Below, in pieces: positions 22,098 to 39,458 of a stretch of DNA of 64,000 bases. Numbering within the stretch: position 1 is the first letter of the stretch; the number at the start of each line of letters is the position of its first letter. The notes below the pieces were generated by a model. That model was not told the DNA's origin, ran no database searches, and saw only the letters and a list, made by a program, of their open reading frames with translations. Where the stretch lies: sequence record PV357171.2. One strand, given 5' to 3'. The position numbers and the translations under genes were made by a program. This stretch comes from a phage.

Positions 22098-22282
22098 TGG
22101 AAACTCTTTTTCTTTTAATGCTAGTAGGTTCCTTGCTAGTTATATTAGCACTTCTACTGATCTGCAATATTCTTAATAATAAGAATCTAGAGCTAAAGTG
22201 TGAAAACCAAATCCTTAATCGTGAACTTAAACAATATAACATAGCAGCGCACAAGCTACTAGACAAATTGGAGAATAAGTAA
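22097..22282 (+). CDS. hypothetical membrane protein
   Basis: 61 aa; TAATG overlap; hydrophobic N-terminus. Confidence 0.4.
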   Translation: METLFLLMLVGSLLVILALLLICNILNNKNLELKCENQILNRELKQYNIAAHKLLDKLENK

Positions 22283-23934: not shown

Positions 23935-24243
23935 AACTCTATGAGTTAATAGAATTAACCATTTAGAGTTGCCACACAGAAGGTGTGGTGGTTCAGTAAT
24001 TTAAAATTACTAACTTGTAGCGGAGGATACGGAGCGACAGGACAAGTTAATAAGTAATTTAATATAAATTACTAGAAACATCACGAGACCTTCTGGCGGG
24101 GGGCAAAGCTCTATATGAGAACCCTGGGGGATCTTATATTTAAAATAAAAGTAAAACTTTTGACCACATAATTTACATTCAAGATGATACACCTGTTGCC
24201 GCTCATCTGCTAGGATGGCACAACACTTTCTTCTAGACTCCTA

Positions 24244-24572
24244 AGTTTCTAGGAAATTGATAAGCACAAATTCTAGAGATCACACAAAAATATTCATCGG
24301 ATTTGCACATATTCTAGGGCAGTTTTCACTGTTCCTAGAAACTCCAGCAATAGGCGGTTAATACAGGGCGGTTATAGGGAGGGCGGTTATTTCTAGGAGA
24401 CATTTTTTGAAAACACATTTCCAGAAATTACTGTCGGATTTGCACATTGTGTTTCTAGAAATTTATGGTCGGATTTGCACAAACGCCTAAGTTTTTAGGA
24501 ACTCTTACTCTCCTGAAAATAGCAGCATTATTTCGGGCCGAAGGCCCATGATTGCCTGAGTTTTTAGAGCCA
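24244..24572 (+). repeat. about six dispersed copies of GTTT(C/T)TAG(A/G)AA motif
   Basis: Copies read near 24244, 24321, 24380, 24450, 24487 and 24559. Confidence 0.5.
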
Positions 24573-25034
24573 CAAGAATTTTCACTTGTCAAGCTATTTT
24601 GCCCCATTTTGCTAATAAAATTTTACTTTTTCTGCACCTATCTCAAATTTCCCCAAATTATCTCAACTCTTCCCCAAAATCCCCGCAAATCAGGTGCTCC
24701 GCACCAATCCTGCGCCTACTTCCTTCTAGTCCCAAAATTTCTCTCACTCTCTCATCCTCTCCTCAAACCTATACAATCACACACCCTCTCATCGAAGTCA
24801 TAAAAATCTTGTCGGATTCGCACATCTCAACACATGTCGGATTTGCACATACTCTAGCTAATCCCACAGGATTCGAACGCAGTTCGTGATTGCTGGAGTT
24901 TTTGGGAAAATTCATTGTCGGATTTGCACACTATAAAAATTTTTCGGGTCGGATTTGCACACTACCAAAAATTGTCGGATTCGCACATACACGCCCACGC
25001 GTAATCCATGGGGGCAAATGTCGGTTTTGCACAA
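24297..25034 (+). repeat. nine direct copies of 15-bp motif GTCGGAT(T/C)TGCACA (iteron-like array)
   Basis: Copies at about 24297, 24433, 24468, 24811, 24836, 24917, 24948, 24974 and 25020, all same orientation. Confidence 0.7.
24595..24795 (+). repeat. about 200-bp polypyrimidine (C/T-rich, G-poor) tract on the + strand
   Basis: Strong strand asymmetry with repeated CCCCAAA(A)T units. Confidence 0.6.
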
Positions 25035-25059
25035 AAGCGCAGGGCAATTGCCCTGCTCG

Positions 25060-25255
25060 CCTGAATGCGAATAAAAATAAGAATCATTCTCATTTAAAAA
25101 GTGGAATGCGAATGAGAATCATTATCATTTAGAAAACGGAATGAGAACTATTCAAGAAGTGAAATGATTCTCATTTAAAAAGTGGAGTGATTATCGATTA
25201 GCTAGTGAAATGCGAATGATAATGATTCGCATTTAAAAACGGAAGTGAGAAACAC
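25060..25255 (+). repeat. four degenerate tandem units sharing (C/T)CATTTA(A/G)AAA(GT/C)GGA(A/G)TG and GAATGCGAATGA cores
   Basis: Units read at about 25089, 25124, 25168 and 25228. Confidence 0.5.
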
Positions 25256-25266
25256 TGCTATTTAAG

Positions 25267-25275
25267 TTATCCACA
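25267..25275 (+). promoter_or_regulatory. DnaA-box consensus 9-mer TTATCCACA
   Basis: Perfect match to the high-affinity DnaA box consensus. Confidence 0.5.
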
Positions 25276-25327
25276 GACTTATTAACAGCACGATTTGACT
25301 TGACAGAATCCTAGCCATTTTGAGGCG

Positions 25328-25336
25328 TTATCCACA
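25328..25336 (+). promoter_or_regulatory. DnaA-box consensus 9-mer TTATCCACA (inside left inverted repeat)
   Basis: Perfect 9-mer. Confidence 0.5.
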
Positions 25337-25491
25337 GACTTATCCCCAGGTTATTCTACTGTATAAATATACAGTATTCCTATGCAGTGAATAATTCTAA
25401 TATAGGCTTAAAACGTCCTGAGTGGTGGTACTAAAACAAAGGGGTATTTATCTGAAGGACTGAAAAACTGGGATCTGCTCCCCGCTTGTTA

Positions 25492-25686
25492 TCAGTCCGG
25501 TAATTGATGCGTGATCTTCTCCTCCTCCCCGTAGGAATCCACCAAATGCTGATAATACCCATCGTTATCATAAATCACTTTATCATAATCGCCACGCTCG
25601 ACCGCTTGCCGATTTTCCAGCGTATCAGGCACAAAGAAAGTATCAACGGTAACAGTAGTTTTAGTTACAACAATTTTATCACTCAT
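25492..25686 (-). CDS. hypothetical protein
   Basis: 64-aa ORF inside the inverted-repeat cassette. Confidence 0.35.
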   Translation of the reverse strand: MSDKIVVTKTTVTVDTFFVPDTLENRQAVERGDYDKVIYDNDGYYQHLVDSYGEEEKITHQLPD

Positions 25687-25812
25687 AACGCCATCGCCCC
25701 TAGAATGAGAATGATTATTATTACCATTACAAGCCCGTTACTAAATCGTAAACGCTGGGAATGTTTACCAGCGGTATTATTAGATTTATGGGATTGCGTT
25801 TTACGCCACCAG

Positions 25813-26013
25813 CTATTCACGGTAGACACGCCAGCCGTCTAGCTTCCATTCTTCCCCCTTGCGAATATTGAAAAACCAATCATTAAAATTGTAACCATCT
25901 TCTGACATGATCACGCCGTTTTCTTTCATGTACAAAAATTCATTGCTAGTAAAATATTGATTACTAACTTTAAAACCTTGTTTCATTTTTTCTAGTGCTT
26001 CATCTTTAGTCAT
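25813..26013 (-). CDS. hypothetical small protein (resembles a small phage-associated family with conserved Trp residues)
   Basis: 66 aa; EALEKMKQGFKV...DGW pattern; family assignment is by recollection only. Confidence 0.4.
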   Translation of the reverse strand: MTKDEALEKMKQGFKVSNQYFTSNEFLYMKENGVIMSEDGYNFNDWFFNIRKGEEWKLDGWRVYRE

Positions 26014-26354
26014 TGCGCCACCTTTCGAAACGCTGTTTCAATACTATCCGCAGTGGATTGAATATACGCGCCTTTCATTATCAGGCGCTCGGTACATACC
26101 TTGCGGAAAATATTAATAAAATCATCTTCGTTTTCTGCAATTAATGCTTCACCCATAACCTGAACGTCACAAGATGCAAAGGTCAAAAATTGAAACGCTA
26201 GTTCACGGGCAACGACCGCATTAATTTTATAGTGCGCCTTGCCCTCATAAATATTAATAACGCCCTTATATTCAGGGGAAAGCTGATTTAAATAGTTTGC
26301 TAATAATGCCGGACGGCAATTAGCAACAAAACGATTGCCCTCATAAATTACCAT
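26010..26354 (-). CDS. hypothetical protein
   Basis: Start set at an internal ATG next to the upstream stop (track extends to 26393). Confidence 0.4.
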   Translation of the reverse strand: MVIYEGNRFVANCRPALLANYLNQLSPEYKGVINIYEGKAHYKINAVVARELAFQFLTFASCDVQVMGEALIAENEDDFINIFRKVCTERLIMKGAYIQSTADSIETAFRKVAQ

Positions 26355-26355
26355 T

Positions 26356-26568
26356 TTATAACACTCCACGAAAGGCCGCGTAAAAGGTGGCAAAATGTTT
26401 AACCGTCTCAGCGATCACGTTGCCCCGTTTATCGAATTTCTTTTCTGTAACACGAAAGGCGTTTTTGTTGCGTGCTACATATTCGATTTTACAATCTGGA
26501 CGCTCGAACGTGTTAACGTCCACCAGCTTAAAGCCTTTCGAACGTGTAAGGGAAACGTTACGGATCAT
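26356..26568 (-). CDS. hypothetical basic protein
   Basis: 70-aa ORF in a back-to-back array. Confidence 0.4.
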   Translation of the reverse strand: MIRNVSLTRSKGFKLVDVNTFERPDCKIEYVARNKNAFRVTEKKFDKRGNVIAETVKHFATFYAAFRGVL

Positions 26569-26570
26569 TT

Positions 26571-26759
26571 TTATTCTCCTTTACTAGTCATGCAGCCCAG
26601 CAGATAAGAAAAAACGGCGATACCCGCGCCAATAATAACCATTGGTTTTGTATTTACTAAACCACAATAGGAATCCTGAATACCATAAGCGGTGGCGAAA
26701 AGAGTCAGAATAGCGCCCAAGATACCTGCTAGAATAGCTCGAAAAATAACCATTTTCAT
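26571..26759 (-). CDS. hypothetical membrane protein (two transmembrane helices)
   Basis: Internal start MKMVIFRAILAG... chosen (track extends to 26840). Confidence 0.4.
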   Translation of the reverse strand: MKMVIFRAILAGILGAILTLFATAYGIQDSYCGLVNTKPMVIIGAGIAVFSYLLGCMTSKGE

Positions 26760-26800
26760 TCTCCTAGAAATTAGAGGCGAAAGTAACGCCCAGTTATTGG

Positions 26801-27028
26801 TTACATTAAAACGATTTTGGCGGCTTGTTTTTTGGTGCAATGTTCCGCTTTCAATTCATCCAGCAAAAATCCAGCTGTTTGCTGATCAATCTTGTCATTA
26901 TTGTAAAGCTCCTGAATGGTAACATAAGTTTTAGCAATCCCAAATTCAGAAACCATAACGCTTACAATAGCGGGAACGGATACCCATTCCATACCATTAA
27001 AAATTGCAGAAGATGATGAATGTACCAT
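26801..27028 (-). CDS. hypothetical protein
   Basis: 75-aa ORF, first gene of the - strand array. Confidence 0.35.
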   Translation of the reverse strand: MVHSSSSAIFNGMEWVSVPAIVSVMVSEFGIAKTYVTIQELYNNDKIDQQTAGFLLDELKAEHCTKKQAAKIVLM

Positions 27029-27357
27029 TTTAACGCCTCCTAGAAATCAGGGAAAATTTTCAATCCACCGTTTTGGTGTAAAGGCATTATAACAAAAAAG
27101 GCCACCATAAAAGGCGACCTTTACAAAACTTTACATTAGGTTAATTATTACTCGCTTTCGGTGCTAACGGTAAAAGTAGAAATATCAATACCTTTCACCA
27201 TTTCCAGCATTGCCGCCACCTGGCCGCCGCGTTGGGTCTTTACTTTAATATTACCCCACAGCGTTTAGCTCGTTAGAAAGCGATTTAGGCCGCTTATTTT
27301 GGGCATCATTATAGTATGCTTCCCATTTACCCTGTATATTTATACAGTGGAATAACC

Positions 27358-27366
27358 TGTGGATAA
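27358..27366 (-). promoter_or_regulatory. DnaA-box consensus 9-mer (TGTGGATAA on + strand; inside right inverted repeat)
   Basis: Perfect reverse-complement 9-mer. Confidence 0.5.
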
Positions 27367-27430
27367 GTCTGTGTAAAAGTGCTGTAAAGCCTTCCTATTG
27401 TGTCAATCAAATTTACAAAATGTATAAACC

Positions 27431-27439
27431 TGTGGATAA
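27431..27439 (-). promoter_or_regulatory. DnaA-box consensus 9-mer (TGTGGATAA on + strand)
   Basis: Perfect reverse-complement 9-mer. Confidence 0.5.
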
Positions 27440-27581
27440 CTTAAATGATAGTGGTTCTCACTAACTAATTTATACAGTTATTATATAACAAAATATAGTT
27501 AGTTGGCTAATAGGATTTTAAAGTGATTATGAGTCTGCTAAGTAAACCTGAAAAACTCATTAGGTAGTCTGCTAATGATTT

Positions 27582-27590
27582 TGATATAAT
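27582..27590 (+). promoter_or_regulatory. extended -10 promoter element (TGATATAAT)
   Basis: TGnTATAAT followed by AAACTAATA...AAGGAAACA leader before the HNH gene. Confidence 0.4.
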
Positions 27591-27630
27591 ATAATAGAGA
27601 TTAAACTAATAACATAAGGAAACAATAACA

Positions 27631-28149
27631 ATGGGTCTATTTAAAGATATAGATTATTCGCTTGCTAATGATAACTTTTATTATGATGAAACATCCCCAT
27701 CATTTCTAAGATGGAAAGTACAGAAAGGTAATAGTAAGGTGGGGGATATTGCAGGGCATTATAGTAACACAGGTTACTATCGAGTAAAGTTAGCAGGCGA
27801 ACAATACGCAGTGCATAGAATAATATGGGTATTATTTAATGGTGAGATTGATAGCAATCTAACAATCGATCATAATGATCGTAACCGTGCTAATAATAAC
27901 ATTAATAATCTTCGCTTAGTAGATCATAAGCAGAATACGAATAACAAGAAAGATTATAAGCGTGCTAATAAGTTGCCTAAGCATATCTATTATAATGGTT
28001 CTAGAGTTGATAATAACGGAAGAAACTATTTGCGCGCTATAGTTAAAGATCCTACTAGTAACAAAAGTGTTAGTAAATCAGGTTATGATTTACAAGAGTT
28101 ATTATTATGGGTAGAAACTAAAAAAGCTGAATTTGGGATTGTCAATTAA
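27631..28149 (+). CDS. HNH homing endonuclease
   Basis: 172 aa; YYDETSPSFLRWKV N-terminal motif and DHNDRNRANNNINNLRLV HNH-like core. Confidence 0.7.
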   Translation: MGLFKDIDYSLANDNFYYDETSPSFLRWKVQKGNSKVGDIAGHYSNTGYYRVKLAGEQYAVHRIIWVLFNGEIDSNLTIDHNDRNRANNNINNLRLVDHKQNTNNKKDYKRANKLPKHIYYNGSRVDNNGRNYLRAIVKDPTSNKSVSKSGYDLQELLLWVETKKAEFGIVN

Positions 28150-28494
28150 TTTATTTTATAAATTAACGCAATGCCACTTGATTTTAAAAAGTCAATACCT
28201 TTTCCAACTATTTTTCAATTTTGCTTTTGTTAAATATTTGTTAAATCGAAAATGGGCCGCCTAAAACGCCCTAGAAAGCGGTAAAATTTTCAGGTATGCC
28301 ATTGCATTGCCTACCCTCGTTTATCGCTACCACGAGCTTTCTAGATTTTGTCAATATCCCCAAAGCAAATATAAATGAAAAAATTACTTGCCTATCTGCT
28401 TGGTTTTATGGTATTCACGCGCCCGTTCCTTTTAATTTAGGTGAGCGCCGCACGCCGTCCGGTGAAACTGTATTAGCCATATTGCTAATAATTT

Positions 28495-28503
28495 TGGTAT
28501 AAT
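28495..28503 (+). promoter_or_regulatory. extended -10 promoter element (TGGTATAAT)
   Basis: Near-duplicate of the 27582 promoter-leader. Confidence 0.4.
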
Positions 28504-28537
28504 ATAATAACCAAATGAAACTAATAGGAGAATATTA

Positions 28538-28879
28538 ATGATTGAGCTAACAAAAGATATTGATTTAGAAACTGTGCTAGATAATCTTTACTATGATGAA
28601 ACTAGTCCCAGTTGCCTACGGTGGAAAGTATCCCGCCCCGGTTGCGCCCTTCATGGGGTAGCAGGTACTAAAAGAAAGGATGGTTACTGGTCTGTACAGC
28701 TCAATAAAGAGCGTTACCTAGCGCATCGTATCGTGTGGTTATTATTTAATTATAAAATAGATAGCAAACTAGTAATTGATCATATTGATCGTAACCCTAG
28801 TAATAATTTTATTGATAACTTACGGTTAGTAACTCAAGCCGAAAACAACCAAAATAAGGGAGGCTATAGAAAGGCGTAA
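28538..28879 (+). CDS. HNH homing endonuclease paralog, C-terminally shorter (possibly degenerate)
   Basis: 113 aa; same N-terminal and HNH motifs as 27631..28149 but ends about 60 aa earlier. Confidence 0.5.
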   Translation: MIELTKDIDLETVLDNLYYDETSPSCLRWKVSRPGCALHGVAGTKRKDGYWSVQLNKERYLAHRIVWLLFNYKIDSKLVIDHIDRNPSNNFIDNLRLVTQAENNQNKGGYRKA

Positions 28880-28966
28880 AACTTACGTTTCTTTACAAAA
28901 ATAAGGTTGCGCCCTTTTCGGGAATCTCCTATTATTTATCACGTAGGGCGGCAATGACGAACTACA

Positions 28967-28995
28967 CGGCGGGAAGTTTACCGCCGCGCTCTTTA
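28967..28995 (+). terminator. candidate terminator hairpin
   Basis: CGGCGGG-aagttta-CCGCCG followed by a moderately T/A-rich tract. Confidence 0.35.
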
Positions 28996-29308
28996 AAAAT
29001 TGGGTACATCTTAAAGCCTATCGGCGGTAAACTTATTCATTATAAGGAATCGACGATATGAAACAAACTTTATTGATCACTGGCAAGCCTAGCAAGGCAC
29101 TAGATAGCAAAACAAAAAATTTGTTGACAGTAGCGCAAAATTCTGTAAAATGGCGATTCAAGCAATATTTGCAAGGTCGCCAGCAAGGTTTAGAAATGAT
29201 CTGGCGAAACATTATGATTGACCTGAAGGAAAATCATAAAAAATCTCAAAAAATTGTTTGACAGCCTAGCCGATAGGTTTTAAGATGTACCCAGTTCGAA
29301 AAGAGCGA
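28987..29308. other. small ORF flanked by about 39-bp imperfect inverted repeats (28987-29025 and 29270-29308)
   Basis: Left CGCTCTTTAAAAATTGGGTACATCTTAAAGCCTATCGGC versus reverse complement of right CGCTCTTTTCGAACTGGGTACATCTTAAAACCTATCGGC. Confidence 0.5.
29058..29261 (+). CDS. hypothetical basic protein
   Basis: 67-aa ORF between the inverted repeats; internal TTGACA-N16-TAAAAT promoter-like site. Confidence 0.4.
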   Translation: MKQTLLITGKPSKALDSKTKNLLTVAQNSVKWRFKQYLQGRQQGLEMIWRNIMIDLKENHKKSQKIV

Positions 29309-29490
29309 TAACTTGATAAAATTTGACGGTCGGCACTTACCATAATGTGCCCCGCCCCCTAACGGGATATAGCGGCCTACGTGGAGTTCTTTAAATTGAT
29401 TATATTGGCGAGCGGATTGTTACTTATTACCTGCTGTTACTTTCTAGCAGGTAATGCGGAACAATCCCCAAATAACTAGGAGTTTATATT

Positions 29491-29742
29491 ATGAAAAACG
29501 TTATTACCGCGCCTAAAATTGGTCAATCCGTTTTCATCCCTTTCGTTACTAAAACGGATGAATTAACCGGAAAAGCCGAGCGCATCAAAGGCGCAGCGCT
29601 TATGCCATTTGATACAATCGACGCGGTATACGCTGAAACGGAACGAAGTAACAACGGAAAAACTATTTACAGCGTTCGGGTTAAATCCGGCGACGTTGTA
29701 AAGGTTGTTCAACGCAACGAAAAATGGGAAGCTGTATTGTAA
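29491..29742 (+). CDS. hypothetical protein
   Basis: 83 aa; TAGGAG Shine-Dalgarno. Confidence 0.5.
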   Translation: MKNVITAPKIGQSVFIPFVTKTDELTGKAERIKGAALMPFDTIDAVYAETERSNNGKTIYSVRVKSGDVVKVVQRNEKWEAVL

Positions 29743-29840
29743 TTTAGTGTTAACTTTATATCCCCCAGTAGTTCGGGGGATATAACGATTAACATTATGT
29801 TAATCTAATCCCTTAAATTAAACTAATAGGAGTTTTTACC

Positions 29841-30248
29841 ATGACTAACGCAAAAACCGCAAAATTCGCATGGAATGAAGAAAACACTCAGAAAGCTGTT
29901 ACCATGTACCAGCAGTTAATCAACGAAAACGGTTTAGATTTTGCAAATAGCGACGGCCTGAAAGAGATTGCAAAAGCAGTAGGCGCGGCTTCTCCTGTGT
30001 CTGTTCGCTCAAAATTGACCAGTGCAAAAGCCTATCAAAAAAGCGATAAGCCGCGTAAAGTTGGCGGCGGTAGTTCAATCCGTAAAGCGCATTATGTGCG
30101 AGTAATTGCAAAACACGCTATCGATTCCGGCATTATCAAAGACGCCGATGATCTGGCAAGCCTTGAAAGTGCTAAACTGGAAACGCTGGACGCAGTAGCG
30201 CAACTGTTAGGCGTTGCCGATGAAGTAAAACAGGCCGCAGGTGAATAA
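29841..30248 (+). CDS. hypothetical pre-early-type protein (possibly A2-like)
   Basis: 135 aa; TAGGAG Shine-Dalgarno; sits upstream of the A1-like gene; A2 identity is a guess from size and position. Confidence 0.45.
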   Translation: MTNAKTAKFAWNEENTQKAVTMYQQLINENGLDFANSDGLKEIAKAVGAASPVSVRSKLTSAKAYQKSDKPRKVGGGSSIRKAHYVRVIAKHAIDSGIIKDADDLASLESAKLETLDAVAQLLGVADEVKQAAGE

Positions 30249-30303
30249 TTATATACCTTGCCCCCTTTAGTGAGGGGGCAATAATATAACTGTTTAGCGA
30301 TAG

Positions 30304-30534
30304 TTGTTATCTTCCCTTAAATCAGGAGTTTTAAAAATGATTTTCTTTCCTACTGAGTCATTAATTTTAGGCTTGTTTATTATGGCGGCCTCGTTATTGT
30401 TCGCTTATTTTCAAAATGATTTAGATTCATATTATTTTAAACGTAAATCTAAATTAGCAAAACGTTTAGGTCTGCTTTGTTTTATCGCTGCCGTTGCTTG
30501 TGGTGTTAGTTCTAGCCTAGTGCCTTTAAATTAA
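30304..30534 (+). CDS. hypothetical membrane protein
   Basis: 76 aa with two hydrophobic helices. Confidence 0.45.
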   Translation: MLSSLKSGVLKMIFFPTESLILGLFIMAASLLFAYFQNDLDSYYFKRKSKLAKRLGLLCFIAAVACGVSSSLVPLN

Positions 30535-30624
30535 TGTTGCAAATTATAACGCCTATTGTTCGAGGCGTTATATTTGGCAATATTGCCGTTATTAACCTAA
30601 TCCCTTTAATGGAGCTTTATTACT

Positions 30625-32295
30625 ATGATTATTTCCGCAGAAAAACAAACCGTTATCCTGAAAATGGCCGCTGACTTTAATTTCTATGGTAAACGTCTGC
30701 GCGCTACTAAACTGGAGGTCTGCGACGATATATCAAAAGCAGTCTACGATACAACGAAACATTCCACCGCCATTTGTGATTGGCTGGAAGCAAACAAACC
30801 AGCGAAACCAAAAGCGGCAAAAGTAGCAAAAGCCATTAAAAACGATGAGCGCCCCGAAGCGGCGGGGATTGTTTCTAGCACGGTTGAACAGTGGGAAGTA
30901 AAACAGGGTAAACGCTTTATTATTACGTCGATTCAGAATAATACTTTCCCGCATAAAAACTTTTTAGCCTCGCTTGAACAATTTGCTAAATATATCGGCG
31001 CTGATTTGCTTGTTTCTAAGTATATTTATAATAAAAACGGTTTTCAAAATGGCGAGGGCGCGGATGGAATAAAGTATGATTCCGCGTTCGATAAATATAT
31101 TTGCAGCAAAAACGTGTTTTTACATAACCGCCGTTTTGCTTTCATGGCTGAAATTAATGTTTTGCCAACCGCAGATTATCCGCTTTCTGGATTCGCAGAA
31201 ACTGCTACCGCGCTCAATATTGAAGGGCTGGCAATTGGTCACGCTAAAATTACCGCCGAAAGCGTGCCAGCTTTAAAAGGTGAAGTAGTGCGCCGTATGT
31301 ATTCAACCGGAACGGCAACGCTCAAAAACTACATTCAGCAGAAAGCAGGACAAAAGGCCGAGGCGCTGCATAACTTCGGTGCGCTTATTGTTGAGTTCGA
31401 TGATGATGGGGAATTTTTTGTTCGCCAGCTTGAAACAATGGACGAAAGCGGGGTGTTTTATGATCTGAATGTTTGCGCTACTCCTGCCGGATGCTATGAA
31501 ACATCGGGGCATGTTTTAGGCTTGCAGTATGGCGATATTCACGCCGAAAAATTAGATGAGGAGTGCGCCGCCGCATCTTGGGGGCATGGTGATACCTATG
31601 GGCTAGTAGATATTCTTAAACCAAAATATCAGTTTGTGCATGACGTGCATGATTTTACATCGCGCAATCATCATAACCGCGCATCCGGTGTATTCCTAGC
31701 GAAACAGTATGCCGCCGGACGTGATAAAGTTCTGGATGATCTTATCGATACCGGTCGCGTGCTGGAATCAATGGAACGTGATTTTAGTCAAACAATCATT
31801 GTTGAATCGAATCACGATTTGGCGCTATCCCGTTGGCTTGATGATCGTAATGCTAACATTAAGGACGATCCCGCCAACGCCGAACTATATCACCGCCTGA
31901 ATGCTGCGATTTACGGAGCTATTGCAGAAAAAGACGACACCTTCAACGTGCTAGATTATGCGCTGCGCAAGGTTGCAGGTTGTGAATTTAACGCCATTTT
32001 CCTAACGACTGACCAATCTTTCAAGATTGCAGGTATTGAATGCGGCGTACACGGTCACAATGGCATTAACGGGAGCCGTGGCAATCCGAAACAATTTAAG
32101 AAATTGGGCAAATTAAACACCGGACACACTCATACCGCCAGCATTTACGGCGGCGTTTATACCGCTGGCGTGGCTGGTAGTCTGGATATGGGTTACAACG
32201 TTGGCGCGTCAAGCTGGACACAAACGCATTTAATTACCTATGCAAACGGTCAACGCACTTTGATTGACTTTAAAAACGGTAAATTCTTTGCGTAA
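30625..32295 (+). CDS. A1: A1-like pre-early protein, calcineurin-like metallophosphoesterase fold
   Basis: 556 aa; GDIH, NHD, GHNG and GHTH metallophosphoesterase motifs in order; length matches T5 A1 as recalled. Confidence 0.65.
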   Translation: MIISAEKQTVILKMAADFNFYGKRLRATKLEVCDDISKAVYDTTKHSTAICDWLEANKPAKPKAAKVAKAIKNDERPEAAGIVSSTVEQWEVKQGKRFIITSIQNNTFPHKNFLASLEQFAKYIGADLLVSKYIYNKNGFQNGEGADGIKYDSAFDKYICSKNVFLHNRRFAFMAEINVLPTADYPLSGFAETATALNIEGLAIGHAKITAESVPALKGEVVRRMYSTGTATLKNYIQQKAGQKAEALHNFGALIVEFDDDGEFFVRQLETMDESGVFYDLNVCATPAGCYETSGHVLGLQYGDIHAEKLDEECAAASWGHGDTYGLVDILKPKYQFVHDVHDFTSRNHHNRASGVFLAKQYAAGRDKVLDDLIDTGRVLESMERDFSQTIIVESNHDLALSRWLDDRNANIKDDPANAELYHRLNAAIYGAIAEKDDTFNVLDYALRKVAGCEFNAIFLTTDQSFKIAGIECGVHGHNGINGSRGNPKQFKKLGKLNTGHTHTASIYGGVYTAGVAGSLDMGYNVGASSWTQTHLITYANGQRTLIDFKNGKFFA

Positions 32296-32351
32296 TTAAA
32301 TTATTCCCCTAGCGGCTTGAAATATAGCCGCTATTATAGGAGCTAAATTAA

Positions 32352-32609
32352 ATGAAAGTTACATTACCCAAAACATTGGACGAAAAAGTATTTATTTCAC
32401 CGGATGAAATGGAATCTGATAAAGTTTACAGCTTCGGGCCTATCCTAGCCGCCAAAACTAATACGGATGGTATTATTTCCGTCGATTCCCGTGATAACGA
32501 TATTGTTCCTTTTGATGATGATGGCGCTTTTTATGAGTGGCTAAGCGATAATAATTTACCCGTAAACGGTGAATTAACGCCATACCAGATGCAGATTATT
32601 ATCAAATAA
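32352..32609 (+). CDS. hypothetical acidic protein
   Basis: 85 aa; TAGGAG Shine-Dalgarno. Confidence 0.5.
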   Translation: MKVTLPKTLDEKVFISPDEMESDKVYSFGPILAAKTNTDGIISVDSRDNDIVPFDDDGAFYEWLSDNNLPVNGELTPYQMQIIIK

Positions 32610-32647
32610 ATTAAATCCATTATTAAACTAATTGGAGTTTTATAAAT

Positions 32648-33040
32648 ATGAAAAAGCAAAATATTCCCTTCGATCGCGCTCAGTCCTCAATTGTTCTGGT
32701 TTATTCCAACGGCGAACGTTACCACGTCGAGGCTGGACACGTTATTGATGACCTATTAGATTTCAATGACGCTTTGCAGGTTACTACCTTTGCATATACG
32801 CAGGGCAAACTAACCAGCCATATTAAAGCAAAAGGCGTTTATGTTGACACGGTGAAACAAGAAACGATTATCATCGACGCCGTAAAATCCGGCCTAGCCT
32901 TTGCAGTTGTCGCGCCTTGCCTCGCTTGCCTTGATGATCAATTGATTAGTGCAAAGGTCTACACATGTGCGGGGATTCGTTCTAGCGTATCCGGTGAGGA
33001 TGTTAGTTTTATCGCTGATGCGTTGGCTTATGGTCTTTAA
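32648..33040 (+). CDS. hypothetical protein
   Basis: 130 aa; GGAG Shine-Dalgarno. Confidence 0.5.
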   Translation: MKKQNIPFDRAQSSIVLVYSNGERYHVEAGHVIDDLLDFNDALQVTTFAYTQGKLTSHIKAKGVYVDTVKQETIIIDAVKSGLAFAVVAPCLACLDDQLISAKVYTCAGIRSSVSGEDVSFIADALAYGL

Positions 33041-33120
33041 TAGTTGATTTATTATTGCCCGCTTATAAATAGCGGGTAATGCTGAATTAATCTAATCCCT
33101 TAAATGGAGAACGTAACAAA

Positions 33121-33855
33121 ATGAATCAAGTTAAAACGAATATTACCCGTAATTTCCCGCATATTTCCCGCGTCATGATTTGGGATCTTGATGGCACTAT
33201 CGTTAATTCATTCCATCGTGTCGCGCCTTGCTTTGATAGCGACGGGAATTTAAATTTAAATAAGTATAAAAATGAGGCTTGCAAACATGATTTAATAATG
33301 CAAGATACTTTATTGCCTTTGGTGGAATATATGCGCCAATGCATGAATGACGCAAATACTTTAAACATTATTTGCACCGCTCGACTGATGAGCAAATCAG
33401 ACTATTATTATTTGCGTAAACAAGGATTGCGCGGGCGTGGTGATAGTAATATCCGTGTATTTTCCCGCGATACACTGCATAAATATTTTGAGGCTGATAA
33501 GGTTAGCGAAATATACCACAGCAAAGACGCAGTTTATAAATCGTATTATTTTGAGCTATTCAAACAACTATATCCGAACGCTGATTTTACAATGATTGAT
33601 GATCATAAAGGTGTATTATCAGCGGCAGCGTCATACGGATTTAAAACGCTGGACGCGCAAGCCGTTAATGATATTCTATCAATCGGCGTGGCATTGATAG
33701 GCGGAACCTTTATTGATGAATCTCTCGATGATGATAATGATTATCAGTTCCTAGCGGACCGATTGAAATTATGTTGGGAAAGTATGACCGAGGAAGAACG
33801 CGCAGAATATAGTTGCAGCCCGCAACAATATATTGAGAAATTAAAAGTTGCGTAA
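33121..33855 (+). CDS. dmp: HAD-superfamily phosphatase, 5'-deoxyribonucleotidase (dmp-like)
   Basis: 244 aa; DLDGT HAD motif I near the N-terminus; location in the pre-early block. Confidence 0.6.
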   Translation: MNQVKTNITRNFPHISRVMIWDLDGTIVNSFHRVAPCFDSDGNLNLNKYKNEACKHDLIMQDTLLPLVEYMRQCMNDANTLNIICTARLMSKSDYYYLRKQGLRGRGDSNIRVFSRDTLHKYFEADKVSEIYHSKDAVYKSYYFELFKQLYPNADFTMIDDHKGVLSAAASYGFKTLDAQAVNDILSIGVALIGGTFIDESLDDDNDYQFLADRLKLCWESMTEEERAEYSCSPQQYIEKLKVA

Positions 33856-34017
33856 TAATTAAAGTTGAAATAGTCACGGTGTGTAATGATAACATGCCGT
33901 GACTATTAGCTTGCTAAGTACCGGGCGGTAATGAGACTCATTCTCATCTGGGGGGCCACTGCACCCACCCACGCGTACGTAATCCAAAGAATTTGGCAAA
34001 AGTCATTTTAGTGCTAA

Positions 34018-34557
34018 TTAACTGTTTAATTGGGCAACGTCTGGTATACTTCCTTTGAACATCTCCTGTATTGCAAAGTCACCATGAAATGTCCTTCTTA
34101 GTAAATTTGCATAATTTACGGCATCTTCTAATCCGCTATAGGGAAAGTACTTAGTAGTACCCCTTATCAGCCCCTGTTTATCATGTAATCTTACCATCCA
34201 CTTCTGAAGTTCTTTATGCCATGTAACATTTAGATAGCCTGATGATGCTCTTGAGATTCTGCCATTATGATTATTCTCTGTAATTGAAGCCTCTCTTAAA
34301 TTTGACCATCTATTATTTAGTTTATTCCTATCTATGTGGTCTACACATTCCTCTGGCCATCTATTCTCCATAATAACAAAAGCTACTTGATGTGCATAAG
34401 CTTTAAACCCTCGATACTTAAGCTGCCTATATCCCCTATTTAAAGTACCTGCTTCTTTACCCTTACGATTGCCTCTTTTCCAGGTAAAAACTCCGGTTTC
34501 GGGATCATAAGCAAATACTTCTTGTATTTCCTGTATGTTTAAATTATTCTTCATCAC
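34018..34557 (-). CDS. HNH endonuclease with AP2-like DNA-binding domain
   Basis: 179 aa; CVDHIDRNKLNNRWSNL HNH core; intact paralog of the frameshifted 18437 gene. Confidence 0.7.
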   Translation of the reverse strand: MMKNNLNIQEIQEVFAYDPETGVFTWKRGNRKGKEAGTLNRGYRQLKYRGFKAYAHQVAFVIMENRWPEECVDHIDRNKLNNRWSNLREASITENNHNGRISRASSGYLNVTWHKELQKWMVRLHDKQGLIRGTTKYFPYSGLEDAVNYANLLRRTFHGDFAIQEMFKGSIPDVAQLNS

Positions 34558-34789
34558 TCACCTTTGCCCGAAATCTCTTCCGCGACGCCCGAGATCCATC
34601 CGACCACTCCCGCTCAAACTCCGCACGTTTCTCGTCAAACTTCCGCTCCCTTTCCGCAATCTTCCGCTCCCTTTCCGCAATCTCCCGCGATACTTCCGCA
34701 GTATACTTACGATGCTTGTTAATAGCCGCAGTCATTCCGAAAACTCCCGCAAGTACCCCGATAATAAAAGCAATTATAATACTAAACAT
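34544..34789 (-). CDS. hypothetical membrane protein with charged repeat tail
   Basis: 81 aa; N-terminal transmembrane helix; REIAERERKIAERERK repeat. Confidence 0.45.
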   Translation of the reverse strand: MFSIIIAFIIGVLAGVFGMTAAINKHRKYTAEVSREIAERERKIAERERKFDEKRAEFEREWSDGSRASRKRFRAKVSDEE

Positions 34790-34976
34790 CTAATTCCCTC
34801 TCAATTTGCAGAATACGGGTACTATCACAACGTTGGAGTTCTACTAATTTTTCTAGAGCAAATTGTTGTTGTTTTACCTGAGCTTCTAGAGTTTTTAGGC
34901 GAACATACGCGTTATAAGAAACAATGAAAGTTGCCCAGACTAGTATTACTATTAGTGTAGCTACTACTTCCATCAT
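34782..34976 (-). CDS. small membrane / coiled-coil protein
   Basis: 64 aa; N-terminal transmembrane helix; ATGA-coupled to neighbours. Confidence 0.4.
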   Translation of the reverse strand: MMEVVATLIVILVWATFIVSYNAYVRLKTLEAQVKQQQFALEKLVELQRCDSTRILQIERELDV

Positions 34977-35080
34977 TTACGTTTCTCCGTTAGTAAAGTT
35001 TCAATTCTAGCTAAGTGATTATCTAAAATACATTGCCCAATAATCATAATTCCCAGTAATGAAATAATTACCCATTCCAT
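34975..35080 (-). CDS. small membrane protein (35 aa), paralog of 35080..35235
   Basis: Begins MEWVII and ends RIETLLTEKRK; GAGGAG Shine-Dalgarno; below track cutoff. Confidence 0.3.
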
Positions 35081-35235
35081 TATTTACGCTCCTCTAATAA
35101 AGTTTCAATTCTAGATAACCTATTACTCAACTGCATTAATTTAACCTCTACTTGGGTTACAGAGGTATCTATTACACGTAAGCCTACAAAGAGAAGTATC
35201 AGTAGGATGAATATGCCAATAATTACCCATTCCAT
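35080..35235 (-). CDS. small membrane protein (51 aa)
   Basis: Begins MEWVII and ends RIETLLEERK; GGTGGA Shine-Dalgarno; track ORF extends to 35265. Confidence 0.35.
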   Translation of the reverse strand: MEWVIIGIFILLILLFVGLRVIDTSVTQVEVKLMQLSNRLSRIETLLEERK

Positions 35236-35363
35236 TAAATCCACCCCGCCATAGCTGCTAACCAAAAACCTACGAAGATTAGGAATAATACAAAACCAAA
35301 TCCGTAAATATTAATCCACGCTTCGTACACTTCTCCGCGTCTGTTCTTTCTTTTGTTTGACAT
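35235..35363 (-). CDS. small membrane protein (42 aa)
   Basis: Internal ATG after AGGAG chosen (track extends to 35426). Confidence 0.3.
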   Translation of the reverse strand: MSNKRKNRRGEVYEAWINIYGFGFVLFLIFVGFWLAAMAGWI

Positions 35364-35539
35364 ATCTTTCCTGCTCCTATAAATATAGTATTTGGAATAT
35401 TTTATAATTTGCGCATAGCCAACCATGCTCGTGATTTCCTAGAAGGGCTTTTCACTTTCTTGCATAGTGTTTTCTGCTAGTACACCATCCAAGAAATAAA
35501 AAATTTAGTTTACTTGGATGTCTTTTTGCTTTATACTAA

Positions 35540-35806
35540 TTACAAGTAATTAGATTGCTCTAGTTTAAATTTACAATCACCATATTTAAGGTCAAACTGA
35601 CTGAGATCCCACCATCCAAACTTAGTACGGAGCTGTACTACTGGAAAGCGATCTCCCTTAATACGAACTTTTTGAACCTTGAGACCGTAATGTTCTTCTC
35701 CCTCACCACCAAAAGATTTTACAAATCCAGTACAAAATGGTTTGGGAGCAGGTGCACAACCAGATAACATAACTGCGGCAACTAGTGTAATCACAAACTT
35801 TTTCAT
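35540..35806 (-). CDS. llp: lipoprotein, Llp-like (candidate receptor-blocking superinfection-exclusion protein)
   Basis: 88 aa; signal peptide with LSGC lipobox; divergently placed next to the receptor-binding protein gene as in T5. Confidence 0.6.
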   Translation of the reverse strand: MKKFVITLVAAVMLSGCAPAPKPFCTGFVKSFGGEGEEHYGLKVQKVRIKGDRFPVVQLRTKFGWWDLSQFDLKYGDCKFKLEQSNYL

Positions 35807-35891
35807 ATTTATCTCTCCATTTCTAATTTATGAATATATTATAGCAAAATAGAGAGATGAAAGCAAATACATTTTTATAATAGGAGATTAT

Positions 35892-37649
35892 ATGGGTTTT
35901 TTCGCTGGAAAATATAGCGATGGTAAGACCGTACTATCTTTAAATACTGAATCTGGTGGTGACATTAATCGTCACTATAGTCCAAATACCAATAGTATTT
36001 TTCATAGTGATATGCCATTTGTCCTAGTTGATGGTACTTATGAGTCTGGGTTAGGTGATGCCGGTAATGGGTTTTTTGTATGTCAGATGCCCTCTGACAT
36101 AATAAATATTAAATCCAATGACCCCGGTAGAGTTATATTAACTGCTATTGAGATTAATGGTACTCACAGAGCTTTTCTTAATGGTACTCAGAGTAAGGTG
36201 GGTCAAACTATAGTTGCCACTCAAGCAGATCCTTTTAGATCTTTTGCTAGTGTTTCCCAGACTAGTGGATTTGCATTTGGTAATAGCCTGGCATCTGGTA
36301 CATATAACTATAATCCATCTATAGGGCATGAAGAATCTATTTCTAGGAATGGTACAGGGGGTACTACCTTACATAGTACGTATCATGGTATAGTTAGGCC
36401 GGGTGCAGGAGCTCCAGTAGGTATTACTGTTGCAGAAGCTTTTGCACAGTTAGGATTCCCTACTAATAGTAGTACAGTACCTATAGATGGTAATAACCAA
36501 TATTACTGGGACCCAGGATGGATGTCTCCTTTAGGATCAGCACACAGAGGGCACGATTGGTTTTATGTTTGTAACTCTAACATACGTGGGTATGGTGGGG
36601 TAAGACAAGGTCTTCCTGGTAATGTAAATACTATGTATCATGATGGAGGTAACAGATTTGTTTGTAGGGGGTCTACAACTAATTTAGCTAACCAATCTGG
36701 TAACGCTACAATATTACAGGATTGGTATAACATAACCCCTACTAAAGTTATTTGGTATGTTCTGAATTTAAGATACTCAAATGGTGGTATGAGTATCTCT
36801 GGTAATCCTTTTACTGGTTCAGATATTCTTATATCTCCTTCTAATTTCATAATTAAAGGGGTTAGTCTTCCCAATACTGGATACAAGTTTATTAACCAGA
36901 ACGCTTTTGGTAACTTAGGTTATAGACCAGATATGGAGTATATAGGAAATAACGCAGCGTATACCGGGGTTTTTGGGGATACCACGGCAAGGTGTGAACT
37001 TGTAGGATCTAGTAATGGGGGTTTGTGGTCTCCTGTAGATTATGGAGGGGCTAAATCTCAAATTAGTATTTATAAATTCGGAGCTGGTAAGCAATGGTAT
37101 GTAAACTCTAGGGATAATACTATCGGTAATGAACACGGGGTTGTTTGGGGACCATCAGCAGTTCCATTACGACTTTTTGGTGGAAATGTAGGTAGCTCTT
37201 ACATGGGGGATGATATTACTCCCAGCTACCCGGGAACAGGGGATAGATACGTTGGTTTATCAACTATTGGGCTAGGTATACCGGGTGGCAATGCTACAGT
37301 AATTCTTACCACTGAAGTTATATCAGGTAACCTTAACTGTGCAGGTGTTCCTGCTAATACATGGAATAACGGTGTGTTTCAAGTGCAAGGAAGAAGAGCA
37401 TATAGCTATAGTAATGGAGATGCAATATTCCACCAGATTTTAACATTACCAGTAGGGTATTTAGTACCTTTTCATACTACATCTGCTTTTAGATACACAC
37501 CTAACAATGCCCTAAGTAGAAATAGTTTTATATACACTGCTAAAAATCTGGGGAATGGAAATGTAGAGTTAGGGGTAGTTATGCACGTAAGTTTAGGTAG
37601 TGCAGTTTTCCTACCGAGATTAAGAGTAACAGTTCAACGCCTTACCTAA
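35892..37649 (+). CDS. receptor-binding tail protein (pb5-like)
   Basis: 585 aa; N-terminus MGFFAGKY...SGGD...IFHSDM and C-terminal ...QRLT resemble T5 pb5 as recalled; paired with llp. Confidence 0.6.
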
Positions 37650-37659
37650 AGGAGGAAAT

Positions 37660-38142
37660 ATGGCAAATGATGTATTAGTACCAGATCTTATGTCCCCTGA
37701 AGGGATGGATGTAATTGAAGCATATTTACAGTGTGGGAGTGATGTGCCTTCTGCCGCACGTAGTCTTGGAATGTCCGAAATTGCTTTTAGAGATATTATG
37801 AATCGTAGTGAAGTTAAGAACTACTTAAATGATATTTTTATGGAGAGTGGTTTCCGTAACAGAGATCGTTTATTTGGTGTTCTGGATGAAGTTATCAAGC
37901 GTAAACTAGAGGAACTAGAAGAAACTGGCATGGGTTCTGACCAAGATATTATGGATATTCTCTGGAAAGCACATAAAATGAAAATGGAAGAAATGAAAAT
38001 GATGGTAGAACTGGAGAAAGTTAAGGCAGCAGCCCGTACTCCAGCTAACCAGACCAACATCCAGAATAATATTATTGCTGGAGCTGGGGATCAAAACTAC
38101 ATGGACTTAATTACTTCCCTAGCTACTGGAGGTAAGAAGTAA
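37660..38142 (+). CDS. putative terminase small subunit
   Basis: 160 aa immediately upstream of and overlapping the large terminase gene; call is by position only. Confidence 0.4.
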
Positions 38143-39458
38143 TGGAAGTATCAAGACCTTACGTTAATACAGTAGATGTTATTGATTTCGGAATAGATAA
38201 ACGTTTCTTTCGTCTACCTGTTTCGGGAATACTAGCACAAGAAGGTATTACACCTAATGGTCCTCAAATAGCGATTATTAATGCTCTAGAGGATCCTAGA
38301 CATCGTTTTGTAACGGCGTGTGTATCACGCCGTGTAGGTAAATCCTTCATCGCATATACTCTTGGGTTCCTAAAATTGCTGGAACCTAATGTGAAGGTGT
38401 TAGTAGTTGCTCCTAACTATTCACTGGCCAACATCGGATGGTCTCAGATTCGTGGTCTTATTAAAAAATATGGCCTACAAACTGAACGTGAGAACGCTAA
38501 AGATAAGGAAATTGAGTTAGCTAATGGTTCTCTGTTTAAACTAGCTTCCGCTGCTCAGGCTGACTCCGCAGTTGGACGTTCATATGATTTTATCATCTTT
38601 GACGAGGCGGCAATTTCCGATGTGGGTGGTGATGCCTTCAGGGTTCAGCTGCGTCCTACCCTAGATAAACCTAATTCTAAGGCTCTATTTATTTCCACCC
38701 CTCGTGGAGGTAACTGGTTTAAAGAGTTTTACGCCTACGGATTTGATGATACGTTGCCTAACTGGGTATCTATTCATGGTACATATCGTGATAACCCTCG
38801 TGCTGACCTGAATGATATAGAAGAAGCACGTCGTACGGTTAGTAAAAACTACTTCCGCCAGGAATATGAAGCTGACTTCTCTGTATTTGAAGGTCAGATT
38901 TTTGATACTTTCAATGCTATTGACCATGTTAAAGACCTTAAGGGTATGCGTCATTTCTTTAAAGATGATGAAGCATTCGAAACGTTGCTTGGTATCGACG
39001 TTGGTTATCGTGATCCTACAGCAGTTCTTACTATTAAGTATCATTACGATACGGATACTTACTATGTATTAGAAGAGTACCAGCAGGCGGAGAAAACTAC
39101 AGCTCAGCATGCTGCTTACATTCAGCACTGTATAGATCGTTATAAAGTTGATCGTATTTTTGTTGACTCCGCGGCAGCTCAGTTCCGTCAAGACTTAGCT
39201 TATGAGCATGAAATTGCATCAGCTCCAGCTAAAAAATCTGTCCTAGATGGCCTAGCATGCCTGCAAGCACTGTTCCAACAGGGTAAGATTATTGTAGATG
39301 CCTCATGCTCCTCCTTAATTCATGCACTGCAGAACTATAAGTGGGATTTCCAAGAAGGTGAAGAAAAATTATCCCGTGAAAAACCACGTCATGATGCTAA
39401 CTCTCACCTTTGTGATGCGCTGCGCTACGGAATTTACTCTATTTCCCGTGGTAAATAA
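38142..39458 (+). CDS. terminase large subunit
   Basis: 438 aa; Walker A SRRVGKS and Walker B DFIIFDEAA, C-terminal nuclease-like region. Confidence 0.8.
   Translation: MEVSRPYVNTVDVIDFGIDKRFFRLPVSGILAQEGITPNGPQIAIINALEDPRHRFVTACVSRRVGKSFIAYTLGFLKLLEPNVKVLVVAPNYSLANIGWSQIRGLIKKYGLQTERENAKDKEIELANGSLFKLASAAQADSAVGRSYDFIIFDEAAISDVGGDAFRVQLRPTLDKPNSKALFISTPRGGNWFKEFYAYGFDDTLPNWVSIHGTYRDNPRADLNDIEEARRTVSKNYFRQEYEADFSVFEGQIFDTFNAIDHVKDLKGMRHFFKDDEAFETLLGIDVGYRDPTAVLTIKYHYDTDTYYVLEEYQQAEKTTAQHAAYIQHCIDRYKVDRIFVDSAAAQFRQDLAYEHEIASAPAKKSVLDGLACLQALFQQGKIIVDASCSSLIHALQNYKWDFQEGEEKLSREKPRHDANSHLCDALRYGIYSISRGK

Follow-up and report, generated by a model that had tools for sequence, protein, structure and literature searches.

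A merged copy of the T5-type direct terminal repeat as the probable origin of an internal pre-early block in a Tequintavirus sequence

The window analyzed here, a stretch of 64,000 nucleotides of phage DNA (PV357171.2), carries a pre-early block of the terminal-repeat type between its early and late modules, which raises the questions of why this block is internal and where the physical ends of the virion DNA would lie. The first-pass annotation had attributed the arrangement to two repeat copies merged in assembly, had placed a physical end near 35.4 kb, and had named comparison with a complete T5-like genome as a check. Every element that it listed was found in place (A1, dmp, the repeat-rich region, llp, and pb5), as was A2 (Table 1), and the comparison with T5 confirmed the collapsed-repeat arrangement. 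The window very probably represents a Tequintavirus (T5-like) genome in which two identical long direct terminal repeats (DTRs) have been merged into one copy, 24567-33965, and its sequence is in all likelihood a circular permutation of the unique genome plus one repeat.

The window was colinear, as reverse complement, with T5 from position 35,872 down to 105, after which the match jumped to T5 111,444 and continued to 80,599. In the blastn comparison, window 1-25495 matched T5 35872-9264, running straight across the inner edge of the LTR, whereas 26010-33874 matched T5 8644-105 and 34569-64000 matched T5 111444-80599. The early side (1-24566, colinear with T5 35872-10220) contains 15 tRNA genes, and the late side beyond pb5 contains terminase, portal, capsid, and tail genes. 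No second repeat copy was found in the 64-kb window, in which matches to the T5 repeat were confined to 24567-33874. The single copy has the inner flank of the LTR on one side and the outer flank of the RTR on the other, and this T5 synteny of both flanks upheld the earlier identification of the block as one merged copy of a T5-type DTR. Because the left neighbor is the DNA that follows the left repeat of T5 and the right neighbor is the DNA that precedes the right repeat, the block can have arisen only through fusion of the terminal copies or, equivalently, at a concatemer junction. With these two flanks, the copy could not belong to a correctly resolved linear genome, even if the parent sequence contained another copy outside the window.

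T5 replicates through concatemers, and a T5 concatemer junction would have exactly this sequence. It is conceivable, though improbable, that the window reflects a genuine intracellular form, either a concatemer junction or a circular replicative intermediate, with one repeat copy between successive unique genomes. The identical arrangement of metagenome contigs and the circle formation proposed in Davison's model are compatible with such a form; however, it is indistinguishable from a collapsed repeat by sequence alone and is superfluous, since virion-derived libraries assemble alike. A single merged copy is the usual output of assemblers. The collapsed arrangement is already well known for T5-like phages, and most GenBank records and metagenome contigs are alike in this respect. 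The inner junction was present in 445 phage records at only 510 places, of the 30 best-matching records, those of at least 18 distinct phages contained a single internal block as in the window, and unsupervised Logan and ENA contigs of ~106 kb also had a single internal copy.

Table 1. Features of the merged repeat and its surroundings in the window
Feature	Position	Strand	Basis or remark
Nine DRD-type direct repeats GTCGGATTTGCACA	24296..25033	+	≤1 mismatch
Single (probably collapsed) direct terminal repeat, first-step-transfer/pre-early region	24567..33965		~9,399 bp; blastn synteny with T5 LTR and RTR
Injection-stop-signal (iss) region	24637..25500		homologous to T5 9140-10149, 89% identity (pairwise alignment)
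Two DRE-type 76-nt direct repeats	25072..25251	+	palindromes of type AATGAGAATCATTnTCATT, Fur-box-like
IRD'-spacer-IRC' inverted-repeat unit	25244..25374		paired DnaA/DnaA* boxes
Small pre-early ORFs, T5.017 and T5.015-T5.012 homologues	25492..27028	-	homology to T5
T5.014-like abasic-site nicking endonuclease	26356-26568	-	homology to T5
IRC-spacer-IRD, inverted partner of 25244-25374	27332..27462		131-bp pair; DnaA boxes 27358, 27370, 27431 (- strand)
HNH homing endonuclease, hegG/T5.010 homologue	27631..28149	+	Pfam HNH_3, E 3.3e-15
A2, DNA-binding protein required in second-step transfer	29841..30248	+	PHROG 1725, E 1e-51; 99.3% aa identity to T5 A2
A1, DNA transfer protein, 556 aa	30625..32295	+	PHROG 1745, E 2.6e-244; 96.9% aa identity to T5 A1
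dmp, deoxynucleoside-5'-monophosphatase, outermost repeat gene	33121..33855	+	95.9% aa identity to T5 and BF23 dmp
HNH homing endonuclease	34018..34557	-	Pfam HNH_3, E 7.6e-12; PHROG 99; 52 bp beyond the outer edge of the repeat
Small membrane-protein ORFs, T5.162-T5.159 homologues	34544..35426	-	unique DNA between right repeat and llp
Non-coding gap, llp/T5.159-like intergenic region	35427..35539		equivalent to T5 110663-110825, BF23 103919-104031
llp	35540-35806	-	BF23-type: 97.7% aa identity to BF23, 23% to T5
Receptor-binding protein pb5	35892-37649	+	PHROGs/comparison with T5, BF23
Terminase small and large subunits	37660..39458	+	Pfam Terminase_6N, Terminase_6C; both 100% aa identical to T5's

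The closest GenBank genomes showed ~87-94% nucleotide identity over 76-87% of the query, and none was near-identical; with best matches at this level only, no deposited record directly fixes the ends of the window phage. Both repeat junctions nevertheless align with the DTR edges of T5, BF23, NBSal005, and SP01. The inner edge, 24566|24567, coincides exactly with the DTR edges of these four phages, and the junction ...GCCTGAGTTTTTA|GAGCCACA... aligns with them free of gaps over ±130 nt. The outer edge, 33965|33966, lies 110 nt beyond dmp, compared with a distance of 109-123 nt from the dmp stop codon in T5, BF23, SP01, and NBSal005; it falls within ±2 nt of the homologous point in these phages and retains the T5-type junction core. 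The records of SP15, JLBYU43, and GEC_vB_N3 stop at the homologous outer point, and the repeat annotation of Elw begins there. The outer end is fixed less firmly than the inner end, because the outermost ~100 bp inside the repeat form an allele unlike that of T5, BF23, and SP01 (common to NBSal005, chee24, Kenya-K16, and Elw) and because the depositors of same-allele genomes disagree, placing the edge at the equivalents of window 33871, 33945, and 33964, in some cases 20-95 nt further in. These mutually inconsistent annotations were dropped for fixing the edge, and weight was given to T5 (whose record annotates both terminal repeats), to BF23 (ends determined with PhageTerm; PMC10644984), and to the exact self-duplication in NBSal005 and SP01.

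The repeat would thus measure ~9.4 kb by homology (24,567-33,965) instead of 10-11 kb, and its true outer edge would lie at ~33,965, not near 35.4 kb. A repeat extending from the repeat-rich region to the gap, with the HNH endonuclease and membrane-protein genes inside it and the physical end at 35.4 kb, would have a length resembling that of the T5 repeat (~10.1-10.2 kb), and a non-coding gap is a plausible cut site. We nevertheless regard this placement as very improbable. The gap (starting at 35427, or at 35364 with a shorter start of the adjoining ORF) has its homologue outside the repeat in the resolved relatives, by ~0.9 kb in T5 and BF23, where it precedes the right repeat, and by 1.5 kb in SP01, and it is at no DTR edge. 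Beyond the exactly duplicated DTRs, unique DNA of SP01 and NBSal005 aligns with window 34569-37700, which is colinear at 95% with SP01 9516-12626, and the outer flank from 34569 matches T5 111444-110777, unique T5 DNA. The terminase is identical to that of T5, the T5-type core is kept at 33965, and length alone is no guide, since indels make the DTRs of resolved relatives vary between 8.9 and 10.8 kb. A scan for promoters and terminators over 23.8-36 kb performed no better than shuffles (43 vs 38 expected and 13 vs 10, respectively) and gave nothing specific at the 35.4-kb gap. The earlier observation that the repeat-rich region lies 10-11 kb from the gap was correct as a distance, but the gap is no terminus; the 35.36-35.54 kb interval is evidently an ordinary intergenic region adjoining llp. 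The segment 33,966-35,430, with the HNH endonuclease and small membrane-protein genes, is by homology unique DNA in all resolved relatives. The HNH gene at 34018-34557 is absent from T5, BF23, and NBSal005; SP01, with two identical DTR copies, has an HNH gene at the same site, outside its 8,948-bp DTR, and the SP15, JLBYU43, and GEC_vB_N3 records stop just short of the position of this gene.

Taken at face value, the contig would describe a phage whose long terminal repeat had been lost and whose DNA is packaged in another way (e.g., headful and circularly permuted), with the block truly internal and single-copy; nothing specific speaks for this, and its probability is close to negligible. TerL and TerS are both 100% identical to those of T5, which leads one to expect cleavage of the same specificity. 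The two junction sequences are conserved, as are the iss region and the nick site, and every close relative with resolved ends carries a DTR. The merged-repeat reading was built on gene content, colinearity, junction homology, and terminase identity, which were observed directly, and from these we infer two copies of the block per virion genome, with ends exactly at the homologous points.

From its outer (left) end, the repeat reads dmp, A1, A2, the T5-type order that Davison stated as a criterion. A search of a local Pfam copy gave no family for A1, A2, dmp, pb5, or TerS, and these proteins were assigned instead from PHROGs and by comparing them directly with their T5 and BF23 counterparts. 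The label of PHROG 415, "polynucleotide kinase," was set aside for dmp in favor of the T5/BF23 annotation and 96% identity. At the nucleotide level (blastn), the dmp end of the block was 90% identical to T5 105-1380, and the locus of the hegG homologue was 93% identical to T5 5105-6345. The repeat is shorter than that of T5 in large part because T5.011 is absent.

The expectation of an injection-stop region at the inner edge of the repeat was borne out by the T5 homology (Table 1). Its anatomy matches the layout of Davison, with nine DRD and two DRE copies, the IRD'/IRC' and IRC/IRD pair, pairs of DnaA boxes, and an overrun of ~270 bp. In Davison's description, there are nine DRD copies, Repeat Region 3 overruns 270 bp into unique DNA, and IRD'-spacer-IRC' carries paired DnaA/DnaA* boxes (10.1101/866236). 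In the window, the DRD copies at 24296, 24433, and 24468 lie outside the repeat, and ~270 bp of the repeat-rich region (24296-24566) fall in unique DNA, as in T5. With ≤2 mismatches, GTCGGATTTGCACA had 11 matches in the whole window vs 0.29 expected, and 0 of 100 shuffles had as many. The major nick site A|GCGC is conserved at 25036|25037 (+ strand), as located by T5 coordinate mapping and the T5 annotation. The DnaA/DnaA* pairs in 25244-25374 are TTATCCACA gac TTATTAACA and TTATCCACA gac TTATCCCCA. The DnaA consensus alone was not enriched across the window (11 vs 7.6 expected), and DnaA boxes are meaningful only as pairs inside the inverted repeats.

Fur-box-like palindromes were strongly and specifically enriched in the repeat. 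The 19-bp palindrome GATAATGATAATCATTATC (Escherichia coli Fur box), with ≤4 mismatches, had six distinct starts in the 9.4-kb repeat vs 0.07 in shuffles (maximum 1) and one match in the other 54.6 kb of the window; of 400 permuted palindromes of equal composition, none reached six sites. In the iss region, two to four of these palindromes fall within the DRE repeats, adjoining the nick site; a single one lies ~60 nt upstream of A2, another within the 3' end of dmp, and another at a distance of 20-40 bp from the left end as predicted here. T5, BF23, NBSal005, and SP01 all retain the sites, and none was found in 56 kb of other T5 DNA. We found no paper that mentions such sites in a T5-like repeat. 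It is rather unlikely that these candidate boxes are genuine sites for the host iron regulator Fur; a phage protein, for instance A2, is just as conceivable as their ligand. If they were Fur sites, the regulator could contribute to retaining the first-step-transfer DNA at the injection stop or could tie pre-early expression to iron status, alongside the DnaA boxes, which have already been put forward as the anchor of the iss. This enrichment in the iss region is the sole point that might merit experiment.

Under the merged-repeat reading, virion DNA would have its left physical end at 33965, reading to lower coordinates, and its right physical end at 24567. From 33965, the order would be dmp, A1, A2, the small pre-early genes, iss, and the early genes, followed by the late genes around the circle and, as the final segment, by 33965 to 24567 once more. 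As in T5, the block would be the first-step-transfer DNA, the first to enter the cell; A1, A2, dmp, and other pre-early products that it encodes would shut the host down and let the remaining DNA enter, and injection would pause at the repeat-rich iss region close to the inner edge. The virion genome would be ~9.4 kb longer than the assembled unit. In practice, this matters for annotation hygiene: the sequence should be re-oriented so that it begins at window 33965 (reverse strand), with the 9.4-kb repeat added at the far end. With an end at 35.4 kb, four or five membrane-protein genes and an HNH endonuclease would wrongly be counted as first-step-transfer (pre-early) genes.

In its biology, the locus has the standard T5 architecture, with nothing new. 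ECOP18, SHSML-45, HildyBeyeler, and LVR16A have the same order of early genes, repeat, and llp/pb5/terminase within ~105-113 kb, with no difference in kind. In T5 (NC_005859/AY587007), the gene order is identical (dmp-T5.002-T5.003-A1-T5.005-A2-T5.007-T5.008/9-hegG ... T5.012-T5.017-iss), with 86-93% nucleotide identity across most of the block, a near-identical inner junction (two differences in 260 aligned nt), a conserved nick site and DnaA-box pairs, and identical terminase proteins. In contrast to T5, the window lacks T5.011 (1 kb), has an extra 0.43-kb insert at 28455-28882, carries divergent alleles in place of T5.003 and T5.016 and a different allele in the final ~100 bp before the outer end, has an HNH gene inserted just beyond the outer edge, and has llp and pb5 that are not T5-type; its repeat is ~9.4 kb vs 10.1-10.2 kb in T5. 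BF23 (OR083247) has a DTR of 9,743 bp (PhageTerm) that starts 122 nt past dmp, with the inner junction and the small ORFs from llp to the right repeat arranged as in the window, but its pb5 is just 67% identical, and it lacks both HNH genes (27631-28149 and 34018-34557). Both DTR copies are in the records of the Salmonella phage SP01 (NC_047859) and of NBSal005 (NC_048857). SP01 showed 95-97% nucleotide identity over window 34569-37700 and has a DTR of 8,948 bp with an HNH gene at the matching site just outside it, but of different sequence. NBSal005 shares the 100-bp allele at the outer end (93%) and has no HNH gene at the outer-edge site, and its DTR, of exactly 10,822 bp, ends at the homologous point.

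A megablast search of 50,697 phage records returned 495 that match window 24100-35450, nearly all of them T5-like phages of Escherichia, Salmonella, and Shigella, with the best at 87-91% identity and with A1, A2, dmp, and homing endonucleases annotated beneath the matches. The entire window was colinear with T5 (NC_005859) in reverse complement, so its plus strand corresponds to the T5 bottom strand. The genes named by the first-pass annotation (A1, dmp, llp, and the receptor-binding protein gene, pb5) were all found. That annotation had interpreted the pre-early block as a collapsed direct terminal repeat with a physical end near 35.4 kb; T5 colinearity bears out the collapse, but the outer (dmp-side) end had been misplaced by about 1.45 kb. 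Judged by its sequence, the window is a T5-type genome with its left and right repeats (LTR and RTR) fused into a single copy. The tRNA cluster contains tRNA-Lys(CTT) and tRNA-Gly(GCC), neither of which is annotated in the T5 13-40 kb segment. Tandem-repeat arrays of 21, 42, and 63 nt lie at 59093-59758 in the L-shaped tail fiber (ltf/pb1) region, where the late module is least similar to T5 (78% over 49022-59056).

Features of the window and their T5 counterparts
Feature	Window	Strand	T5 (NC_005859)	Remarks
Early region with tRNA cluster	1-25495		35872-9264	unbroken across LTR inner edge
15-tRNA-gene cluster	1332-6522 (1.3-6.5 kb)	+		ARAGORN
Two 76-nt direct repeats	25072-25251
Left repeat, equally right repeat	26010-33874		8644-105, equally 120175-111636
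A2	29841-30248			99.3% aa identity to T5
A1	30625-32295			PHROG 1745, E 2.6e-244; 96.9% aa identity to T5
dmp	33121-33855			95.9% aa identity to T5
Fur-box-like palindromes	25073-25236, 25701-25731, 29781-29799, 33727-33751, 33927-33945			consensus GATAATGATAATCATTATC
HNH endonuclease gene	34018-34557	-		Pfam HNH_3, E 7.6e-12; 52 bp outside outer edge
Unique DNA immediately left of right repeat	34569-35412		111444-110777
llp (lipoprotein gene)	35540-35806	-		PHROG 1119; lipoprotein signal; 97.7% identical to BF23 llp
pb5	35892-37649			PHROG 4815, E 2.8e-274
Terminase, portal, capsid, tail, L-shaped fiber	37633-64000		108443-80599

As the first-pass annotation had proposed, the window was compared with complete T5-like genomes, which revealed a single fused repeat copy with predicted edges at 24566|24567 and 33965|33966. 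The repeats are resolved in T5 (copies 1-10219 and 111532-121750), in BF23 (OR083247; 9,743 bp, PhageTerm-determined; PMC10644984), and in NBSal005 (NC_048857) and SP01 (NC_047859), whose records each hold two exactly identical copies (10,822 and 8,948 bp, respectively). For the inner (early-gene-side) edge, 130 nt on either side in the four references were aligned with window 24437-24696. The alignment was nearly invariant and without gaps, and all four reference edges fell at one column, which reads ...GCCTGAGTTTTTA|GAGCCACA... and therefore sets the inner edge of the window repeat. At the other side, the repeat starts 109-123 nt past the dmp stop codon in the four references, and the equivalent position in the window (...GGGGGGCCACTGCACC|CACCCACGCG...) lies 110 nt beyond dmp. 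This outer edge agrees with two independent lines of record evidence: the SP15, JLBYU43, and GEC_vB_N3 records end exactly at its equivalent, and the repeat annotation of vB_EcoD-Elw begins there.

The last ~100 bp within the repeat (33856-33965, between dmp and the left end) fall into two unrelated alleles across the T5-like phages, a T5/BF23/SP01 type and a window/NBSal005/chee24/Elw type, the window allele being 93% identical to that of NBSal005. Both alleles have a hairpin just after dmp, and what they share is limited to the terminal ~10 nt and the neighboring unique DNA. Because depositors of same-allele phages put the edge further in (Kenya-K16 by 20 nt and chee24 by 95 nt), we place the probable outer edge at 33965 ± 2 with an outside range of 33871-33966. 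By the homologous edges of the four references, the repeat would be about 9.4 kb long, so the earlier figure of ~10 kb was overstated; it is shorter than that of T5 mainly through the absence of T5.011 (1 kb). A 0.43-kb segment at 28455-28882 (ORFs 28296-28502 and 28538-28879) is missing from T5, and its 113-aa ORF appears to be a partial copy of the hegG-like endonuclease, since 28715-28836 directly repeats, at 74% identity, 27805-27926 within the hegG-like HNH gene.

A physical end at 35.4 kb is contradicted by the homology of DNA within 33966-35430 to unique DNA in T5, BF23, and SP01. This interval contains the HNH gene and four or five small membrane-protein ORFs matching T5.162-T5.159; the counterparts of these ORFs and of the llp-adjacent gap in T5 and BF23 are unique DNA lying 0.04-0.9 kb left of the right repeat. 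Furthermore, window 34569-37700 is colinear with SP01 9516-12626 at 95% identity, well past the duplicated 8,948 bp of SP01. The non-coding gap reported at 35.36-35.54 kb is present and reads simply as the llp/T5.159-like intergenic region, in which the BF23 annotation has a predicted promoter. Within the T5.162-like membrane-protein ORF, tandem 21-nt repeats at 34636-34700 (2.5 copies, 93% matches) encode a repeated ...ERKIAERERKF... stretch. At the site of the HNH gene, T5, BF23, and NBSal005 have no such gene, whereas SP01 carries one of different sequence, likewise outside its repeat; the site, beside the terminase cut site, appears to be repeatedly targeted by homing endonucleases. In the mosaic receptor module (35540-37649), llp shares 97.7% identity with its BF23 counterpart, whereas pb5 is only 67% identical to that of BF23 and 31% to that of T5, and the closest DNA matches are SP01, ECOP18, and IME178 (96-97%).

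Both terminase subunits, large and small, share 100% protein sequence identity with their T5 counterparts and would therefore be expected to cut with the same specificity; both junction cores (24566|24567 and 33965|33966) are conserved. Accordingly, virions very probably carry linear DNA with its left end at 33965, followed by dmp, A1, A2, and the injection-stop-signal (iss) region, and its right end at 24567, with the 9.4-kb block at both ends. Beside such a terminase and such junctions, loss of the terminal repeat in this phage is very unlikely. The fused copy could also represent a replicative concatemer junction instead of an assembly collapse; the sequence would be identical, and the two cannot be told apart from sequence alone. 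In the linear virion form, by analogy with established T5 biology, the repeat would be the first-step-transfer DNA, its pre-early genes would act ahead of the entry of the remaining DNA, and entry would pause at the iss region.

Such collapsed repeats are already known, ordinary, and not unusual. According to Davison, dmp, A1, and A2 are displaced in many GenBank T5-like entries because large terminal repeats defeat the assemblers. The inner junction was found at only 510 places in 445 phage records, indicating that most records hold one repeat copy. Of the 30 best-matching records, those of at least 18 distinct phages show, like the window, a single internal block that runs on into llp, and in unsupervised Logan and ENA assemblies contigs of roughly 106 kb are arranged internally in the same way.

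Palindromes within the DRE repeats (DRD, DRE, IRC, and IRD being Davison's repeat names for T5), such as GCGAATGAGAATCATTATC at 25108, closely resemble the Escherichia coli Fur box GATAATGATAATCATTATC. At up to four mismatches, six distinct starts were found in the 9.4-kb repeat, the copies within the DRE repeats not being independent of one another, versus one in the other 54.6 kb. The shuffled repeat gave a mean of 0.07 and a maximum of 1, and of 400 permuted palindromes matched in composition, none reached the observed count. The terminal repeat shows a strong and specific enrichment of Fur-box-like palindromes. Counterparts of these sites are found in the T5, BF23, NBSal005, and SP01 repeats, and 56 kb of other T5 DNA contained none. 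Fur at T5-like repeats is unmentioned in Davison's analysis, and no report of it was found in the searchable literature. The dmp site may be a chance product of the coding sequence, and the ligand could equally be a phage protein; we regard the enrichment as a lead, not a finding.

The repeat-rich region noted in the first pass proved real in DRD motif counts against shuffles, and the DRE and inverted repeats were located. The DRD motif GTCGGATTTGCACA has nine copies with at most one mismatch at 24296-25033; at up to two mismatches, 11 copies were counted window-wide versus 0.29 expected, a number reached by no shuffle. An extra exact copy at 22620-22633, apart from the cluster of nine and ~1.9 kb outside the repeat, sits inside a T5.019-like ORF (22282-22887). 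A 131-bp unit at 25244-25374 is an inverted repeat of 27332-27462 and has TTATCCACA boxes paired with variant boxes at 3-bp spacing. The T5 major nick at 9748|9749 corresponds to 25036|25037 in the window, and the A|GCGC consensus is retained there. In T5, Davison described "Repeat Region 3" as IRD'-spacer-IRC', two DRE, nine DRD, and DnaA-box pairs (10.1101/866236), and the repeat-rich region of the window agrees with it element for element.
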